A stretch of 26,709 nucleotides of DNA from a virus (Duplodnaviria; Caudoviricetes), in the IMG/VR virus record IMGVR_UViG_3300020045_005585, positions 1-26,709 of that record; one strand, given 5' to 3'. The position numbers and the translations under genes were made by a program. Below, one piece after another: positions 10,526-24,926 of this stretch (position 1 is its first letter; every line of letters starts with the position of its first letter). The notes below the pieces were generated by a model. It had not been told where the DNA came from and did not search any database. It worked only from the letters and a program-made list of their open reading frames with translations.

Positions 10526-11092
10526 TTAGATGACGTCGTCGATGTCGTCGTCAAGATCAAAATCCTTCTTGAAGGTCTTGGCCTCCGTGCTACCGATCAG
10601 GTCAGCCTGCTGAGCCTCGTCAAAGAACTCATCAGTCTCGTCAAGAGCGTCAAACTCACTACGAGTGAAAGGAACCAGTTTCAAGACGCGGATCGAGCGA
10701 GGGTAGACACCCTTCGGCTTTGCCTTACCGTTGTCGACTACAGCGAACTTCAGATCGATATCGGAGAGATTGCCGATCTCTACGTCCTGATCCCAAAGGG
10801 CTCCCTTGATATCTACGACCTTGATAGGATCGTTCTTGGTGCCGTCACGACGCTCAGCAGCCTGCTTAAACGTCATGTAAGGAGCACCATCGAGGTAGTT
10901 ATCCTTCTGCTTGATCTTGTTGCCAATACCCAGTGCCTTGGCTTCCTTGACAGTGTCAGGGGTCAGGACGAGATCAATCGTCCAGTTCAGATTGTCGTCA
11001 AAGGGATTGCCGATTGGCTTGCCGAGGATCTTAGCATACATTGCTTTGCCACGGAATACTACTACTTGCGAATTACTCAAAATATTACTCAA
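10526..11092 (-). CDS. Single-stranded DNA-binding protein (T7 gp2.5-like)
   Basis: GKAMYAK, WTIDL, PIKVVD, IGNLS and acidic tail DFDLDDDIDDVI; has its own strong promoter. Confidence 0.75.
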   Translation of the reverse strand: MSNILSNSQVVVFRGKAMYAKILGKPIGNPFDDNLNWTIDLVLTPDTVKEAKALGIGNKIKQKDNYLDGAPYMTFKQAAERRDGTKNDPIKVVDIKGALWDQDVEIGNLSDIDLKFAVVDNGKAKPKGVYPRSIRVLKLVPFTRSEFDALDETDEFFDEAQQADLIGSTEAKTFKKDFDLDDDIDDVI

Positions 11093-17337: not shown

Positions 17338-17489
17338 TTCTTTCCTACCTCTATAATGCGTTTTAGAAGATCAAGAGTTCTTTTGGAAGTATGTGGACTA
17401 GGATTTCTTATAATATCCTCAGCCTCTTTAGACCACCAAGCCTCAAGCTCCTCGGGACAGGGATCAGAGAGCCCGGAAGAAGTTAGCAT
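17334..17489 (-). CDS. 51-aa hypothetical protein
   Basis: MLTSSGLSDPCPEELEAWWSKEAEDII...; overlaps the ATP-grasp end and is coupled to the next ORF. Confidence 0.5.
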   Translation of the reverse strand: MLTSSGLSDPCPEELEAWWSKEAEDIIRNPSPHTSKRTLDLLKRIIEVGKK

Positions 17490-18219
17490 AGTCTTCGACG
17501 GTTTGACCTTCGAGGCCCGGGGCAGTGTTGATTTCGAGGACATATGCTCGCTCCTGTCTACTGTTCCAGATTACGTCGACGGCTCCGAAGTCGAGCCCAG
17601 AAGCCAAGAGTGAGCGTGATGCCACATCCGTGACTGCCACTGGTGGATTGATTCCGTTTCGGGCGAAGACGAACCCATTTCGGTGATTACGTACTTGCCA
17701 GTTGACTTCCGCGTCTGGCGTATCCGTGCGGCGCGCTTTCTTTTGGACGGCGATGATGATAGATTGCCCTGCTCGCATTCCGACATGGACACGATACTCC
17801 TCCTGTTTCTTCACGTACTGGACGTACAACGGAGCCCGTACGAGAGCAGTCCGAGTGTCAGCAATAACAATCCCGTCCCCGCTGTGGCCAGCAAGTACAG
17901 TCCGACATACAATCGGAAAAGCTTCGTCAGGGATGTCGGCTGGATCAGTCCAGAATCTTGGGATGAGATCAGCGAGGCCGCGGTCGGACATGGTGCGGAA
18001 GAAGTTGAGCTTGTTGGTTGCATGGGTGAGGTTGACTCCGTTCATGGTACACTTCTGATACTGTCGAGCATCCGTGTTGCCGTAGTTAATGATAACGTCG
18101 GTGGGACGAGGAATGAACCTCGAGCCCTCCAACTTCAGTACGGCTCCGTCTAGGGCTTCGGCCAGAGCTCTTGCTGCTCTGCTTCCCTGTCGGTAGGGGA
18201 GGACTCTGTAACGTGGCAT
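17464..18219 (-). CDS. RimK-like ATP-grasp ligase (phage type)
   Basis: ATNK, GHSGDGI, EYRVHV, VRNH, GLDFGAVDVI and VLEINTAPG motifs. Confidence 0.9.
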   Translation of the reverse strand: MPRYRVLPYRQGSRAARALAEALDGAVLKLEGSRFIPRPTDVIINYGNTDARQYQKCTMNGVNLTHATNKLNFFRTMSDRGLADLIPRFWTDPADIPDEAFPIVCRTVLAGHSGDGIVIADTRTALVRAPLYVQYVKKQEEYRVHVGMRAGQSIIIAVQKKARRTDTPDAEVNWQVRNHRNGFVFARNGINPPVAVTDVASRSLLASGLDFGAVDVIWNSRQERAYVLEINTAPGLEGQTVEDYANFFRAL

Positions 18220-18235
18220 CTTACTTCCTTCCTTG

Positions 18236-19345
18236 TTAGTTAGGGCGGGCTGTGACCCAACCTAGGCCAGCGGGAGGGGCGGGTTCCCAAGCATCGATGG
18301 CTCTGCGAGGTTGCGCTCTTCCCGCTTCACGAGCCATACGAGTTAAGGCCTCAGCATCTCTTAGAGACATCGCAGGCTTAATCTTCTTCGGCTTCTCGAA
18401 GGGGTTAGGGATGTACTCCTTCTTGATCAGCTCGAGCCAAGCTCCCCAAGGGAATCCGAGCACCAGCGGCTGAACGATTCGGAAACCATCGAGGCACCGT
18501 TGATTGAATACTTCTTGGTCTCCGACGACTTCGGAAAGGAAGGTTGGAAGTCCCTTGCAGATGTCGGAGAAGATGGCATATCCGCCGCGTTCGGACAGGT
18601 CAGTCGCGATTGCAGTCGGGTCAGCATAGTTCTTGACGGCGTATTCGACGAAGGTGTCGACGAAGGTAGCCCATGTCGTGACGGTATCGGCAGCATTGGG
18701 AGATCCCCCGCAACGGATTTCGAAAGAACCCTTCGTCCAGAGAGGGAGGATGTTAAACGCCATATACTTCAAGCCGTTACGGGTCTCGCCCATACCGGGG
18801 AAATGGCCGTAGCGGAGATACTGTTCCCACGCTTGGACGAGAGAGAGGGAGTTCTTGTTGGAAAGGCAGAAGTGATTCGTGACCCGTTCTTCCCCGTTCC
18901 ATTCGATCAGCATCTCTTCGAAGGTACACCACAGAGCTATGATGCTCGTGAGTTCGTTCACCGTCCGGCCCTTCATATTGATGTGGACGTGGGTGGAGCA
19001 GCGATTGCTGTTGTCTACTCCTGACTTCAAGTCCTTGAAAGATTTGAAGAGAAGGTCTACGAGAGCGGGGACTTCCTCTCGCTTAGCCGGGCCAGAGAAG
19101 ATATACTCACGGGACTCACCGCGAAGAGACCCGTCTGCGACACCGACCCAGCGAGTCTTCGTGATAGGGGAGGCGTAATCGAGATGGCCGTCGCGCGGCA
19201 GGGGGTTCTTGGCCTCGATCTCCAACTCAAGGCCGATGGTGCCTTCGAAGGCGTTCTGTACAATAGGCTGGTTCATCGTGACGCCGGGGATGCCGACAGC
19301 CTTAGCCTTTGCCTTGTTGTACTTAGAAAAGAATTCTTCATCCAT
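18236..19345 (-). CDS. Amidoligase (COOH-NH2 ligase, glutamine synthetase/GCS fold)
   Basis: IGLELEIE, DGSL, RCSTHVHIN, KYMAFN and SFEIR motifs. Confidence 0.85.
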   Translation of the reverse strand: MDEEFFSKYNKAKAKAVGIPGVTMNQPIVQNAFEGTIGLELEIEAKNPLPRDGHLDYASPITKTRWVGVADGSLRGESREYIFSGPAKREEVPALVDLLFKSFKDLKSGVDNSNRCSTHVHINMKGRTVNELTSIIALWCTFEEMLIEWNGEERVTNHFCLSNKNSLSLVQAWEQYLRYGHFPGMGETRNGLKYMAFNILPLWTKGSFEIRCGGSPNAADTVTTWATFVDTFVEYAVKNYADPTAIATDLSERGGYAIFSDICKGLPTFLSEVVGDQEVFNQRCLDGFRIVQPLVLGFPWGAWLELIKKEYIPNPFEKPKKIKPAMSLRDAEALTRMAREAGRAQPRRAIDAWEPAPPAGLGWVTARPN

Positions 19346-19544
19346 TGTAAATAAGTCCTTTGCTCCGAAGAAGGTTAAGAACCTCTTCTGCTATTTCATC
19401 TGCTTCTACAACAGTGTGTTTTTCTGCGTCCCAGATTACGTCTGAAATTGCTCCCAACACTTGGTACTCAAGGAAGTCAGAACTCTCGGATGGTGTTGAT
19501 GGTGAAGGCTGCGTCATCCATGATCTCCTCTCGTAGGAAGGCAT
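19338..19544 (-). CDS. Small hypothetical protein
   Basis: Bridges neighbouring genes; ADEIAEEVLNLLRSKG helix; true start may be ATG 19517. Confidence 0.5.
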   Translation of the reverse strand: MPSYERRSWMTQPSPSTPSESSDFLEYQVLGAISDVIWDAEKHTVVEADEIAEEVLNLLRSKGLIYNG

Positions 19545-20160
19545 ACTTGGTCAGCAGGTTCAGAGTGTCGACTCCGGTGAAGAGACCTACGCAGTCAGTA
19601 TTTCGATAGAGCCAGCGGATACCTCTCGCGTCACGCATGACAGCGAACTTCGGACTCACTGCGATAGCCGATGCTTCTGCGATATTGTTCAACGTCCCTT
19701 CCAGCGAGGGATACTTCCCTACGGCCTGCTGCATAAACCCTTCATCGTACATGAAGTGGGCGAAGTTATAGTCACCCCCGTCACGAAGAAGAGGGTTGCC
19801 GTCGTCGTCACGGCTGCGGAAGTACTTCACCAGAGTGTTCTGAGCGGTCAGTCCGTGCTTGGTAGTCGTGTGGGCCCTACGGGATAGGAACACAGCCCCT
19901 GAGACGCGTCCTGAGGCGTTCATCCACCCGAGGGTAGGTAAGTCCCGGAAGCGCTTGAACTTGGGGCTGTTGAGCTTCTTACGAACCTCTTCCTGCTTCT
20001 CCCCGCACTGGCGAAGAGAAGCCCGGTGGTCTCCGTCAGGAAAGTCTGCCCCGTCAAGGAGATTGTTGACGTAGTAGGGAAGCCCGTCATAGAGGACTAC
20101 AGTATGGAGGAGGCGCTCCGACGCCTGCCTCATGTCAGTCCAGAAAATATCCTTAGCCAT
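19477..20160 (-). CDS. Hypothetical protein of the ligase cluster
   Basis: 227 aa with AAGGGG RBS, between the two COOH-NH2 ligases; LGWMN...VFLSRR motif. Confidence 0.75.
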   Translation of the reverse strand: MAKDIFWTDMRQASERLLHTVVLYDGLPYYVNNLLDGADFPDGDHRASLRQCGEKQEEVRKKLNSPKFKRFRDLPTLGWMNASGRVSGAVFLSRRAHTTTKHGLTAQNTLVKYFRSRDDDGNPLLRDGGDYNFAHFMYDEGFMQQAVGKYPSLEGTLNNIAEASAIAVSPKFAVMRDARGIRWLYRNTDCVGLFTGVDTLNLLTKYAFLREEIMDDAAFTINTIREF

Positions 20161-20170
20161 GTCATACCCC

Positions 20171-21082
20171 TTACGCTGCGACTTCGGTGACTTCTGCTTC
20201 TGTGACTGCGACCGTACGCATCGAATCCACGATGTTGTTGAAAGCAGTTTGCGCCGGGCCGTTGCCGTATAGCTGGTTAGCCACGATCATTTGAGCCGTT
20301 CCGAAATCACCTTCGTTGATGATGCGTTCGATATGTTCGGGTGAATACCCTCCCGTCATCCGGGCGACATCCCAACCTGCTGTCATCTTAGTAATAGCGT
20401 AGTTGCTCAGCGTGTGGATGACGAAGCGGCGGTCCTTCGTGCTGATCCAAGCGTTGGAAGGGGTCCGGTATTCGACGCCATAGGGCTTGGGTCGGAACGC
20501 CCCTGCCTTGCCGTACAGGTCGCGGCGGCGGGGATCGCGGTCGATGAAGCACATGAACATGCCAACGGTGGCGTCGAGAGCCTTGATGAAGTTGGCGCAG
20601 ATTTCGATGTGGTCTTCGTTGTCGACAGGAATATCGGCACCCCAACCATAATGGATGTGGCCAGCGCCGCTACGAAAAGCTCGATCACCATCGGGGCGTG
20701 GATTAGCTTGGAGAGTGTACGCGTTGAAGTCAGGGTCACAGCCGAGTTCCTTCACGTGAGCTGGCATCGAAGCCATGTAGTCAGGATCGAAATCCATGAC
20801 AGGCTGGACGGCAAGGTTGTACGTCTTGCCGTTGCGGTTGAGCTCTTCCCGGATATCGGCGATGGTCTTGACGATATTCTGGTTGAAGCGATCGAAGTCC
20901 CAAGATGGAACAGGGTCGATGTTGAATTCAGCAGCGAAGCCGTCCTGCTGGACAGCCCCTACCGAAGTCTTGAACGGAGCCTTCTTGTCACCCCTGAGAC
21001 CCGTCTCATAGACAGAGACAGGCTTGCCTTTGTACTTGACAAAGACTTCGGGATCGGCGCCAAATGTGAAGGAAGTACTCAT
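20171..21082 (-). CDS. phiEco32-like COOH-NH2 ligase type 2
   Basis: FGADPEVF, QQDG..AEFNI, LGCDPDFNAY, RSGAGHIH and RRRDLYGKAGAFRPKPYGVEYRTPSN; start at ATG 21082 (AAGGA RBS). Confidence 0.9.
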   Translation of the reverse strand: MSTSFTFGADPEVFVKYKGKPVSVYETGLRGDKKAPFKTSVGAVQQDGFAAEFNIDPVPSWDFDRFNQNIVKTIADIREELNRNGKTYNLAVQPVMDFDPDYMASMPAHVKELGCDPDFNAYTLQANPRPDGDRAFRSGAGHIHYGWGADIPVDNEDHIEICANFIKALDATVGMFMCFIDRDPRRRDLYGKAGAFRPKPYGVEYRTPSNAWISTKDRRFVIHTLSNYAITKMTAGWDVARMTGGYSPEHIERIINEGDFGTAQMIVANQLYGNGPAQTAFNNIVDSMRTVAVTEAEVTEVAA

Positions 21083-21121
21083 TATTAGATCCTTTATAAA
21101 GTTTTCTATTGACAAATCGGT

Positions 21122-21149
21122 TGCGAAGCCTAGTTTAACAAACTTCGCA
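21122..21149 (-). other. Hairpin spanning the amidotransferase stop codon
   Basis: TGCGAAGTTT...AGGCTTCGCA, 10 bp including two G.U pairs; possible processing or pause site. Confidence 0.4.
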
Positions 21150-22610
21150 GAGAGCATCGTTACCGGGTTCTTGTAGACAGTCAGTGCAGAGGACGTTATG
21201 CTCGTCTACGAACTCTGCAATATCAGTGATGTCCATCAAGGTAGTTTTACAGAAAGTGCATCGACCTTTCGTGTTAGCCATAACAGTGGCTTCGTCGAAT
21301 TCACGACTCGTAGCATTCCACGTAATATATGGAACACCGGCTACATTCCTGAAAGAGACACCGTCAAGCAACTTCCTGCTATAGTCGGTCTTCGATCCCG
21401 GACAATGTTCGGATTGCTTTCCTTTGGAGACCATTGGAAAGACGTTCGAATTGTTCGATGGTAGGGATAGAGTACTCTTTTTGGAGCTCGCCGTAGAAGT
21501 CGGCACCATCGGTGAAGCCGAAGGATTCACAGAGTTTCTCAAGAATTCGACGTTGTGTAGCTGAGAAGGTATCCCATCGGCTGGAGTTTTGGGCAGGCCT
21601 GCGAGGGCGCTGATCTTTTTGGACAGGTCCGAGGGCACTTCCAGCTTCTTTGTTTCGGCGTCTGGACTTCCGATTATGAAAGGGTTTGTTACAGTTCCTA
21701 CAGCCCCGGTAGGTTCCCGATTCCCGCCAGTTGTGAAGCCAACAGGGTTGGCCGACCTCTCATGGACGCCGGGAGAGGTTTCGACCCAGCGACCTTGCTG
21801 CCACTGGCCATACTGCCCGTCTCGGTTCCTATGCAGACCCCCACCAAAGTGCGTAGGAGTCTGATAAGACTTTTTTTCGACATGGATCTCCACGATAGGG
21901 CGGAGGGACATGACCTTTTCTTCGCCCTTTGCATCGGGGTTGATACGGAAGGACCACAGCGTATGCGGAGGAAGCTCATGATAGATCTCCCCCTTGTCGC
22001 CACCGTTCCAGAGCTTCTTCTTTCTGGCGACCGCGCCGAACATCCAGATTTCTGATGCCCAGAACATCGTCTTGAAGTCTTCCGACCATGTGAACCAGAG
22101 GGGGCGTTCGTTGTTGCGGAAGAAGTTCAGAGTTCCCGCGTCATTGTCCCACCATACACAGGCGTAAGCACCTTCTGCCTTCTTAAAGGTATCTTCGACA
22201 CCATTCTTGGCCATGTGGCCATAGAGGACTTCGGAGTCAACCTTGCCGTGATGGTAGGTGTCGAGAGAATGCTGGTTCCGAAGAGTCCCGTTATGGACGC
22301 CGATGATACCCTGTTCAGGAAAGTCGAAGGGGTGAGCGTTCTTGACATTGACTTCCCCAACCGTTTTGCTACGGCAGTGGCCAATCAGTGCCTGTGACTC
22401 ACCCTCGATGTGGCGATCCCATTGCTTGCTATCGTAGAGATAGGCAGGAGGGCCGACCTGCTTTGCGAAGTCGTAACCCCCGTGCTTCTCCACCTTGACG
22501 ACGCCGGTGCTGTCACGACCTCGTACGGCACAGACATCCAACATGTCCTTCATTATTCGATTGCGGAGCTCGTGATCGAGGACTCCCGCCATTCCGACTA
22601 AACCACACAT
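21135..22610 (-). CDS. Class II (Ntn) glutamine amidotransferase with long linker and C-terminal Zn finger
   Basis: N-terminal MCG nucleophile, RGRDSTG, GHCRSKT, NAHPF, HNGT and VDSE; C-terminal CTFC...CTDC. Confidence 0.92.
   Translation of the reverse strand: MCGLVGMAGVLDHELRNRIMKDMLDVCAVRGRDSTGVVKVEKHGGYDFAKQVGPPAYLYDSKQWDRHIEGESQALIGHCRSKTVGEVNVKNAHPFDFPEQGIIGVHNGTLRNQHSLDTYHHGKVDSEVLYGHMAKNGVEDTFKKAEGAYACVWWDNDAGTLNFFRNNERPLWFTWSEDFKTMFWASEIWMFGAVARKKKLWNGGDKGEIYHELPPHTLWSFRINPDAKGEEKVMSLRPIVEIHVEKKSYQTPTHFGGGLHRNRDGQYGQWQQGRWVETSPGVHERSANPVGFTTGGNREPTGAVGTVTNPFIIGSPDAETKKLEVPSDLSKKISALAGLPKTPADGIPSQLHNVEFLRNSVNPSASPMVPTSTASSKKSTLSLPSNNSNVFPMVSKGKQSEHCPGSKTDYSRKLLDGVSFRNVAGVPYITWNATSREFDEATVMANTKGRCTFCKTTLMDITDIAEFVDEHNVLCTDCLQEPGNDALCEVC
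21379..21759 (-). CDS. Start-less -1 frame nested in the amidotransferase (alternative C-terminus)
   Basis: 126 sense codons between TGA 21760-21762 and TAG 21379-21381, ending RWDTFSATQRRILEKLCESFGFTDGADFYGELQKEYSIPTIEQFERLSNGLQRKAIRTLSGIEDRL*. Confidence 0.55.
   Translation of the reverse strand, partial: EVGQPCWLHNWRESGTYRGCRNCNKPFHNRKSRRRNKEAGSALGPVQKDQRPRRPAQNSSRWDTFSATQRRILEKLCESFGFTDGADFYGELQKEYSIPTIEQFERLSNGLQRKAIRTLSGIEDRL
21834..21891 (-). promoter_or_regulatory. Programmed -1 ribosomal frameshift signal
   Basis: GGAG, 11 nt, in-frame A_AAA_AAG (21876-21870), 6-nt spacer, then 11-bp hairpin CAGACTCCTAC/GTGGGGGTCTG. Confidence 0.75.
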
Positions 22611-22654: not shown

Positions 22655-23026
22655 CTAAGTACGCTCGTTGAGCAGGTGTTGAACGCGTTGCCTTGACAGC
22701 GAAACACGTTTGGCGATTTTATCAGGACTGTAACCTTCCTCACGTAACCGCAGAATGGCTTCAATCTTGTCGTCTAAGACACCTTTACCTTCTGTCTCCA
22801 TCAGATAATAAACGTCTTTGTGAGGTTTGAACCACTCACCCATCAACCTATGCTTGCGCAAACGTCTGTGGAAAAGCATTTCATCTTCACGTGTTCCTTC
22901 AAAAGATTTGATAATCTGAAGAAGATATGGGTATCCTGTTTGGATAGCCGTTAGCCGACTCTCTGGATTTGTTGAGAATCCAATTTTTATTGGCCCTTTT
23001 TCAATGTCTTGTATAAAGTAAATCAT
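22655..23026 (-). CDS. GIY-YIG (T5orf172/MUG113-like) nuclease with C-terminal HTH
   Basis: IYFI...IKIGFS...RLTAIQTG...E...H...GEWF; HTH GYSPDKIAKRVSLSRQRVQHLL. Confidence 0.82.
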   Translation of the reverse strand: MIYFIQDIEKGPIKIGFSTNPESRLTAIQTGYPYLLQIIKSFEGTREDEMLFHRRLRKHRLMGEWFKPHKDVYYLMETEGKGVLDDKIEAILRLREEGYSPDKIAKRVSLSRQRVQHLLNERT

Positions 23027-23033
23027 TTTTCTC

Positions 23034-23062
23034 TTGACAACATGGTCATTTCATGGTATAAT
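23034..23062 (+). promoter_or_regulatory. Consensus sigma70 promoter on the antisense strand
   Basis: TTGACA-17 nt-TATAAT with extended -10 TG, pointing against all surrounding genes. Confidence 0.8.
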
Positions 23063-23963: not shown

Positions 23964-24926
23964 TCAAGTCCGATCCCAAAGGTTGGAGAAGTGTTGGTTA
24001 AGGAAGGGGGCGAGGACTTCGACGGCCTCCCTATTTGTGATCTCGTCCGCCGCGGTCGGAATAAAACCGACAGGCTTTGGCGCGAACGGGTTCGGAGGTT
24101 TGTAAAAAGACTCTTCATTGCCATGGCGGAATTCCTTCAAAGCGGAAACAAAGGCCGGAAACTTCAGACAGTCCTTTACAAGACCATACTCTTGGGTGTA
24201 AATCGAAGACGGAACGTCGAAATCCCAGAAGATAGAACGACCACCCAGATAGTCTCGTCTGGTACGGTAGTGTTCGGAGGGCTTGTTGATGTCCTTCTCT
24301 GTAGCCTTACCCGGATTTCCCGTGAGGAAATTCTGGAACGCGGAGAGATTGAAGAGGTGTGTCACCCGATGCGAGTAATAGCTCTGGAACTTCGAGTTCA
24401 GCAGCGACTTCGTAGACAGCGAAGAGTTAAATGCCAGAGCGTAAGCAATGTCAGGGTTGATCCCTTTCTCTACGAAATCGTTGAAGGTCTTGAAACCGTC
24501 CTCGTGGACCTCGTAGAAGTGACGGGTCATGATCATGATATTCTGCAGAAGAGGTGCATAGATATCCGCAGACACTACGAAGCCGTCGTCGATGTCAGAG
24601 AAGACGATGTAGGGTGCGAAAGGTGAAGTCTTCGTCAGAAAGTCGAAGTAAGGTTGGAAAAGCTCTTTCGACCCCTTCCCGATTGCCTGACGTCGACGTG
24701 ACCACCCGCATTCCGTCGCCACGAGGGAACGGTCAGAGCGAATCTCATAAGAGATTTCCCGGTGGCACGGCTGGGACATACACTCCCGTTGGTCTTCGCG
24801 CGCCAGAATCATGAAGTTAGCTGCGTAACCGAAGTGCTTCTTGTTGTCACGAAGCCATGAGACACAGGTGGCGACCTGTTCCTCAGTATGCTTTGGGTTG
24901 AAATCCAACCCCTTGATGAAAGCCAT
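23964..24926 (-). CDS. Hypothetical protein
   Basis: 320 aa with AAGGG RBS, coupled to the class I amidotransferase; no family recognised. Confidence 0.75.
   Translation of the reverse strand: MAFIKGLDFNPKHTEEQVATCVSWLRDNKKHFGYAANFMILAREDQRECMSQPCHREISYEIRSDRSLVATECGWSRRRQAIGKGSKELFQPYFDFLTKTSPFAPYIVFSDIDDGFVVSADIYAPLLQNIMIMTRHFYEVHEDGFKTFNDFVEKGINPDIAYALAFNSSLSTKSLLNSKFQSYYSHRVTHLFNLSAFQNFLTGNPGKATEKDINKPSEHYRTRRDYLGGRSIFWDFDVPSSIYTQEYGLVKDCLKFPAFVSALKEFRHGNEESFYKPPNPFAPKPVGFIPTAADEITNREAVEVLAPFLNQHFSNLWDRT

Follow-up and report, generated by a model that had tools for sequence, protein, structure and literature searches.

The question raised by this locus is whether a phage gene for a class II glutamine amidotransferase is translated into one protein or into several that share a catalytic head. 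The gene lies on the minus strand of a 26,709-nucleotide (nt) stretch of a Caudoviricetes genome (IMG/VR record IMGVR_UViG_3300020045_005585, positions 1 to 26,709; the whole stretch is called the window here), in which Pfam recognizes a T7-like replication module with DNA polymerase A and primase-helicase. A first-pass annotation had proposed that a -1 frameshift cassette of the dnaX type allows the gene to make two products, a form of 260 residues and another of 491. Both forms are predicted here as well, but a second site further downstream opens a coding domain in the -1 frame and would add a third product of 410 residues, so that three products made by -1 frameshifting at two sites in the linker are probable. 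The gene and its folded parts are the following:

21135..22610, minus strand: class II (Ntn) glutamine amidotransferase gene, zero frame of 491 residues, 54.5 kDa (open reading frame (ORF) and translation)

21876..22610, minus strand: catalytic Ntn domain, spanning residues 1 to about 245 and common to all predicted products (predicted local distance difference test (pLDDT) and alignment)

21165..21375, minus strand: zero-frame C-terminal folded domain, about residues 412-482, CxxC...CxxC (pLDDT 92-95 over residues 421-480)

The 491-residue protein is, by its sequence and fold matches, a class II (Ntn) glutamine amidotransferase and a predicted glutaminase. It has Cys2 at the N-terminus and an Ntn fold, matches GATase_6 with an E value of 2e-17 (Pfam) and the glutaminase domains of PurF and GlmS at 1e-12 (Foldseek), and its catalytic-type columns are invariant (alignment A1). 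In the AlphaFold model of this product every 10-residue block as far as residue 250 has a confidence of 84-98, and the value falls to 55 right after it, which places the first predicted frameshift site at the end of the Ntn domain, as had been claimed. The linker, from residue 250 to about 410, is disordered in the model, and confidence returns over the C-terminal Cys domain, which is predicted to bind zinc and whose CxxC..CxxC motif was found in 118 of 121 homologous proteins.

The cassette at the end of the Ntn domain (site 1) was found with the spacing and sequence that the first-pass annotation had given to it, including a Shine-Dalgarno (SD)-like word, and its -1 frame leads to a product of 260 residues as had been stated:

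21888..21891, minus strand: site 1 SD-like word GGAG, 11 nt 5' of the heptamer (sequence)

21870..21876, minus strand: site 1 slippery heptamer A_AAA_AAG, codons 245-247 (GAA AAA AAG) (sequence)

21827..21869, minus strand: site 1 3' stem-loop, lineage-specific, with an upper stem of 11 bp that can be lengthened to 17 bp (fold)

21829..21869, minus strand: site 1 -1 frame tail, VLSDSYALWWGSA followed by TAG; predicted product of 260 residues, 29.7 kDa (translation)

The upper stem pairs 21863-21853 with 21844-21834 around an 8-nt loop and leaves a 6-nt spacer after the heptamer. Its 11 pairs have a folding energy of -18.3 kcal/mol (z -4.6), and none of 200 shuffled sequences was equally stable; six more pairs extend it down to the heptamer, to 17 in all with one bulge, in such a way that the energy reaches -24.3 kcal/mol and z -5.4. 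The -1 tail ends at the TAG in 21831-21829. Site 1 therefore has the three parts of dnaX/IS911-type signals, an in-frame X_XXY_YYZ, an SD-like word 9-14 nt upstream and a 3' stem-loop 4-10 nt downstream.

Such heptamers are scarce in the window. Among the 37 ORFs chosen as likely genes (8,706 codons), in-frame X_XXY_YYZ with Y being A or U occurs 7 times, where 23 ± 4.6 are expected from synonymous re-codings that leave the protein unchanged, the null model used throughout. Two of the seven sit in the amidotransferase gene, and site 1 is the only in-frame A_AAA_AAG of the set and the one with the strongest 3' structure; Lys-Lys follows an A at 11 places, and only at site 1 is AAA used for the first Lys. 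Two DNA sequencing runs contained about one tenth of the sequence words, and in one run a 151-nt read piece over the site 1 cassette showed 1 mismatch, versus 7-8 in three other pieces, a sample too thin to count. One further case in the window is the ORF at 23964-24926 (minus strand), in which an SD-like word and a 3' fold of -19.5 kcal/mol accompany an in-frame C_CCA_AAG at codon 11; a -1 shift there would terminate after two codons.

Homologues were collected by alignment-based scans, which yielded 79 loci from viruses, 80 from metagenomes and 4 from genomes; a search of the viral contigs with a single sequence returned nothing, and the alignment query succeeded. From the window, three annotated phages and the first two scans, 162 genes coding for 140 distinct proteins were extracted. 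The main set was defined by a bit score of at least 200 and a length of at least 280 residues (31 genes), of which 25 were retained at less than 80% identity. A distant set of 60 genes comprised those with scores of 100-200, at least 330 residues and less than 80% identity, from which L018 and L043 were excluded since both carry the -1 helical domain described below.

The comparison of these genes brought out a second site in the linker, at codon 310 (site 2), which the first-pass annotation had missed and which, from the alignments, is stronger and better conserved than site 1:

21696..21699, minus strand: site 2 SD-like word AGGA, weak here; GGAGG-type consensus in the homologues (sequence)

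21678..21684, minus strand: site 2 slippery heptamer C_CCU_UUC, codons 309-311, Asn-Pro-Phe (sequence, homologues)

21379..21684, minus strand: hidden -1 reading frame of 101 codons; predicted product of 410 residues, 46.6 kDa (no ATG, GTG or TTG before the core)

21382..21591, minus strand: conserved 70-residue four-helix domain in the -1 frame, over the disordered, Ser/Thr-rich zero-frame linker (alignments A2/A3, AlphaFold)

The Pro-Phe pair at residues 310-311 is spelled C_CCT_TTY in all 24 homologues located by the motif, with 4.2 expected, and L104 places the same heptamer at codon 296, which makes 25 out of 25. As a control, the equally invariant His-Pro-Phe of the catalytic domain uses this spelling in only 3 of 24. 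A GGAGG-type SD-like word stands about 12 nt upstream of site 2 in 24 of the 25 genes, versus a background of 17%. Past the heptamer the -1 frame stays open for 94-128 codons in the 23 complete genes, the expected means being 7-29, and for 88 codons in the 24th, which is cut off by the end of its contig. The 70-residue core of this frame is modelled by AlphaFold as four helices with a pLDDT of 92.4, whereas the zero frame over the same stretch reaches about 40-55. Identity in the core is higher in the -1 frame (0.30) than in frame 0 (0.225), with the -1 frame ahead in 91% of 276 pairs, and the codon-position pattern of the substitution rates is that of the -1 frame. Site 2 thus leads into a -1 frame that is open, coding and start-less. 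Since the zero frame, too, is uninterrupted in every homologue and reaches the conserved CxxC...CxxC domain, both frames appear to be used. On these data we consider it highly likely that a shift at site 2 occurs and is selected.

If no recoding took place, the conservation at site 2 would have to come from constraint on the protein (GGEVxNPF) or from RNA structure, the site 1 hairpin could be an antisense terminator, and the -1 ORF would be accidental. The zero-frame protein does keep GGxVxxPF in 114 of 121 cases, and a T run follows the hairpin region on the plus strand. But that segment is disordered in the model, the codon choice is fixed past what the amino acids need, as the His-Pro-Phe control indicates, and the -1 frame is the one that is more conserved and that folds. 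The terminator was rejected because the plus strand does not form the site 1 stem and no terminator was called at that place. We therefore regard the absence of recoding as extremely unlikely.

The helical domain could also be the product of a separate overlapping gene, read from a non-canonical start behind the GGAGG word and with no frameshift involved. The strong SD-like consensus just upstream would suit such a gene, GTG or TTG is found before the core in 5 of 24 homologues, and gene callers give small versions of the ORF from internal GTG or TTG codons (P0122, P0123). Against it, 19 of 24 homologues, the window included, have no ATG, GTG or TTG before the core, a stop codon directly precedes the CCC of site 2 in 4 of 24, and the invariant element is the entire C_CCT_TTY heptamer at about 12 nt from the SD-like word. 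Furthermore, in P0124, encoded on a 46-kb contig, the catalytic head and the helical domain are found in a single frame. A separate gene is for these reasons very improbable, and frameshifting at site 2 is preferred.

P0124 came from a search of 1.84 billion proteins with the profile of the helical domain, which gave nine matches: the two gene-caller fragments of the -1 ORF just mentioned, the fusion P0124, P0125, which looked unrelated, and five weak partial ones. No further in-frame fusions of head and helical domain were found, which is weak evidence. The domain had no match worth naming in Pfam, PHROG, tblastn searches in phages or the Atlas, and no Foldseek match with E of 0.001 or less; the best VIA match (Z 7.1) was among generic bundles. 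Neither PA11-like nor more distant homologues have the -1 helical ORF, which is therefore specific to the clade of the window.

The evidence for site 1 across the main set concerns its position. In 17 of the 25 genes some in-frame heptamer lies within the 12 codons that follow Ile242, a conserved residue, versus 2.85 expected, and none of 2,000 shuffles reached this number. When 40 windows of 12 codons were scanned along the gene, peaks appeared only at codons 242-253 (17 genes) and 302-313 (24 genes), the others having 5 or fewer. With one gene per cluster the site 1 heptamer is still enriched at 50% identity (6.6 of 11 versus 1.0) and at 45% identity (3.6 of 6 versus 0.38, P 0.002). The motif itself varies, with A_AAA_AAR in seven genes, C_CCU_UUN in four, G_GGA_AAN in three, A_AAU_UUU in three and no canonical one in eight, and on a tree of 24 homologues these types require eight label changes, which indicates that the relatives exchange the motif but keep the capacity to slip. 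By the rule given in passages of PMC4066793, 11 of the 17 heptamers are accompanied by an SD-like word (background 17%). At the protein level Glu-Lys-Lys is retained in the five nearest proteins. We infer that shifts at site 1 are selected across the homologues as a kept position with a turned-over motif. The first-pass annotation had looked to conservation of AAAAAAG and covariation of the stem among homologues, and had counted their loss against a shift. The exact motif proved not to be conserved and no common stem was found, yet the position is enriched, so that the dnaX/IS911-like reading stands for the layout in the window and for the presence of some heptamer in most relatives, and not for A_AAA_AAG and its hairpin as such. 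Covariation could not be shown because the hairpin is not kept.

The short tails that site 1 would produce are also biased. Over the last six positions of the -1 tails, 37 aromatic residues were counted, versus 11.0 ± 3.2 expected, while the +1 control gave 0 versus 4.0; the statistic covers 16 genes, with L011 excluded since its -1 frame runs on into the helical domain. The -1 tails are also more acidic than expected. The short form had been described as catalytic-only, and the head is indeed shared, but with such aromatic and acidic ends it may not be merely that. In L011 itself the -1 frame entered through A_AAA_AAG at codon 246 is free of stops through site 2 and into the helical domain (134 residues). 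It is the only gene in which this path is open, and in the window genome two stops stand between site 1 and the helical domain. L084 and L097 have no canonical heptamer in the site 1 region, where slips on the tetramers C_CCU and A_AAG would yield short tails ending in aromatic-Leu.

A change of frame could in principle be made by the RNA polymerase and not by the ribosome, by adding a base within the A7 run or at CCCTTT. Site 1 in the window is a run of seven A, and A7/U7 runs can cause transcriptional slippage (stated in a passage of PMC4066793). The homologous motifs G_GGA_AAC, A_AAU_UUU and C_CCU_UUN, and site 2 itself, are not long homopolymers, and the motif is bound to the reading frame and to an SD-like word 9-14 nt away. 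Polymerase slippage has in our view little chance of being the cause, and shifting by the ribosome remains the preferred reading.

The excess of heptamers extends to more distant relatives. In the 60 distant homologues the linker carries 66 heptamers versus 22.5 ± 4.4 expected, and the catalytic domain 14 versus 44; on 52 clusters the linker excess is 55.8 versus 19.4. SD-like words accompany 24 of the 66, versus a background of 18%. In 9 of 25 annotated phage records there is a heptamer that predicts a -1 product with Pro-Phe or Pro-Trp as its last residues. The motif C_CCA_AAG, found in PaP3, phiCHU, PAA2, SL4, SCYZ1 and tf, gives predicted ends ADIPF (PaP3, phiCHU), DEIPF (PAA2, SL4), LDLPW and VLPW. 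In SU10, KBNP1711 and Aeromonas phage 4_4572 a C_CCU_UUU is followed by an immediate -1 stop, and in SU10 and KBNP1711 (L169, L179) an embedded DDDIPF is spelled in such a way that a -1 slip on C_CCU_UUU stops right past the Phe. DDDIPF is the docking peptide of SSB, the protein that binds single-stranded DNA, as described in a passage of PMC5872125. Phage TL (L167, 1801-2640), whose gene is annotated as broken, encodes 279 residues in which the head is in frame with a LUZ24-type -1 tail ending in DEIPF; read from its sequence, this is a deletion that joins the head to the -1 tail and hard-wires the form otherwise reached by a putative slip. The PAA2 tail recurs in 64 phage records, LUZ24 among them; these are closely related and do not count as independent cases. 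A P[FW] end was counted in 13 of 156 -1 segments entered through a heptamer, versus 19 of 2,752 off-frame segments; kinship inflates this contrast, as does the C_CCU_UU motif, which itself supplies PF. The window's own -1 products, which end in GSA and DRL, do not have the SSB C-terminal peptide (acidic residues, then I-P-F at a free end).

Other features of these linkers were also recorded. An internal SSB-tail-like motif of the (L)DDx(L/I)P type lies in the zero frame at residues 290-370, just past site 2, in 62 of 121 proteins, and is degenerate in the window protein. L050, L145 and L172 (phiM6) have other long -1 frames past a linker heptamer, of about 104, 112 and 79 codons, which by profile are unrelated to the helical domain. 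In the window, the 188-residue ORF at 10526-11092 (minus strand), with an acidic C-terminal tail, is probably the ssDNA-binding protein of the phage itself.

Several observations weigh against frameshifting at these sites. At 40% identity only two clusters remain, and the site 1 enrichment is not significant. The hairpin is not conserved in the 25 homologues, z below -4 being found only in the window and in L010, and eight genes have no canonical site 1 heptamer. Both the site 1 window and the aromatic-tail statistic were picked after the data had been inspected, and the window's own tail alone is not significant for aromatics (2 versus 0.77, p 0.19). At site 2, the AGGA of the window forms a duplex of -4.2 kcal/mol, where most homologues reach about -8 to -12, and the heptamer is followed by no 3' structure (z 0.15), so that the yield of site 2 in the window genome may be low. 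Such structure is not conserved either, since no z below -1.8 was found in 60 nt of the 25 homologues, a measure of local folds and not of pseudoknots or long-range pairing. P0124 comes from a single record with one member, and its fusion may reflect an assembly indel. Fifteen of the 60 distant homologues lack a linker heptamer, and no clear site was seen in CVT22, HP1, StenR_269, 1.208.B, 7-11, A24 and 3H10_20.

The points on site 1 agree with an explanation in which only site 2 is programmed, and site 1 is the chance outcome of a domain boundary rich in Lys and Pro and yields low-level waste. Yet the null keeps the amino acids fixed, Lys and Pro included, and still gives 2.85 where 17 are found; the rest of the genome and the catalytic domain are purged of heptamers; in the window the heptamer coincides with both an SD-like word and a hairpin of z about -5; and the composition of the -1 tails is biased. 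We thus take an accidental site 1 to be unlikely, and selected shifting at site 1 in the window genome to be a strong likelihood.

Downstream of the gene lies a cluster with the following members:

17464..21157, minus strand: downstream cluster of four genes (Pfam, PHROGs)

20171-21157, minus strand: COOH-NH2 ligase type 2 (Pfam, PHROGs)

Minus strand, listed between the COOH-NH2 ligase type 2 and the amidoligase: 227-residue protein without a named family

18236-19345, minus strand: amidoligase (Pfam, PHROGs)

17464-18219, minus strand: ATP-grasp gene (Pfam, PHROGs)

A class I amidotransferase gene is also found on the minus strand beside the class II gene and the ligases (Pfam, PHROGs), in such a way that the adjacent COOH-NH2 ligase 2, amidoligase, ATP-grasp and both amidotransferases make up a cluster of the phiEco32/LUZ24/PA11 type. 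The best cultured matches are Zobellviridae such as PA11-like phages, with 38-43% identity in the catalytic domain only, and the head of the window clade is less than 45% identical to those of cultured phages. Directly upstream of the amidotransferase gene lies an ORF with MUG113/T5orf172 and helix-turn-helix domains (22655-23026, minus strand), which had no match in 30 related loci and is likely a mobile insertion. Between it and the class I amidotransferase, a perfect sigma-70 consensus promoter (23034-23062, plus strand; 12 of 12 with extended TG) is oriented against the minus-strand cluster.

The mechanism that we propose would be as follows. While the tRNAs re-pair one base back on the heptamer, the internal SD-like word would pair with 16S rRNA 9-14 nt upstream; the 3' stem-loop would be an added stimulator at site 1, and site 2 would apparently be driven by the SD-like word only. 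Ribosomes on one mRNA would be partitioned among three C-termini with the catalytic head in common: a 260-residue form (29.7 kDa) with a short aromatic tail from site 1, a 410-residue form (46.6 kDa) with the hidden four-helix domain from site 2, and the 491-residue zero-frame form (54.5 kDa) with the predicted zinc domain. The strong site 1 and the weak SD-like word of site 2 suggest a stronger preference for the short form in the window genome than in most relatives. Speculatively, the alternative C-termini could act as address tags and direct the ammonia-releasing head to different partners, and in LUZ24-like and phiEco32-like relatives an SSB-type docking peptide would become terminal only after the shift. 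This docking hypothesis is best supported by the SSB-type ends of the relatives, since the window's own tails differ from the SSB motif. In its widest form, which we put forward as a tentative possibility and somewhat doubt, the -1 shift in the amidotransferase linker would be a general C-terminal address switch in T7-like podoviruses with the amidoligase cluster, swapping or exposing docking modules for partners that include host SSB-binding replication and repair proteins. With the same reserve, these modules might be the hidden helical domain, the aromatic tails and a free DDDIPF that is silent inside the full-length protein.

If true, such a switch would tie the amidoligase cluster to DNA metabolism and not only to cell-wall modification. 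To our knowledge, nearly all phage frameshifts known so far are in capsid or tail-assembly genes. The data presented here point to selection for recoding in a widespread and uncharacterised phage enzyme gene, with two tandem sites and about 100 dual-coded codons that conceal an unannotated, predicted folded domain. For the cultured phages LUZ24, PaP3 and SU10, the prediction is a product with an SSB-type docking peptide at its end, which bears on what the phiEco32-type cluster targets. If recoding holds, present annotations of such phages miss products: no frameshift is annotated in 25 phage records or mentioned in the passages on the cluster consulted in the literature. As the first-pass annotation had stated, no prior description was found; no report on frameshifting in this gene family appeared in the full-text literature searched, most subscription journals being outside its scope, so that a prior mention is possible.

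Compared with known systems, site 1 resembles E. coli dnaX (tau/gamma) in its SD-like word, A_AAA_AAG and 3' stem-loop, and in a shorter product that ends soon past a domain boundary (passages of PMC5009743, which also give 9-14 nt as the SD spacing for -1 shifts). It differs from dnaX in being in a phage metabolic gene, in its -1 tail of 13 residues versus one codon, in the turnover of the motif among relatives, and in the second site downstream. IS911 and the IS3 family share with this gene the SD word 6-17 nt upstream of the heptamer and, as at site 2, an N-terminal part fused to a -1 domain; passages of the source on these elements (PMC4066793) rank A_AAA_AAG and C_CCA_AAG with the motifs that shift most efficiently in E. 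coli and describe UUY codons in the A site as shift-prone. Unlike in those elements, site 2 is C_CCU_UUY without conserved 3' structure, and the zero frame has no stop along the entire -1 domain (about 100 dual-coded codons) and continues to another folded C-terminal domain. E. coli copA and carboxysome cso2 likewise yield from one gene two proteins, one short and one long, that begin with the same N-terminus, but with a single site, two products and no hidden dual-coded domain in the description given in parts of PMC5009743. Among tailed phages, T7 10A/10B, the capsid genes of phiEco32, SU10 and Privateer, and the lambda G/GT type also shift by -1 on X_XXY_YYZ (passages of PMC7881722 and PMC10885494), the capsid-gene frameshift being reported for phiEco32-like phages in the former; those are virion or assembly genes, whereas the one described here is an early enzyme gene of the amidoligase cluster with two sites. 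The set and order of the cluster genes in the window are identical to those of the phiEco32/LUZ24/PA11 type, for which a role in cell-wall modification has been proposed (Iyer 2009, as cited in a passage of PMC10580990), and the window clade alone carries the -1 helical domain. The bacterial SSB C-terminal peptide DDDIPF is matched by the predicted -1 ends of SU10 and KBNP1711, and the window products differ from it. Taken together, the mechanism is a known one, and what is likely new, as far as sequence comparison can tell, is its combination of tandem -1 sites, a hidden dual-coded domain and a possible family-wide switch of tails in a phage enzyme gene.

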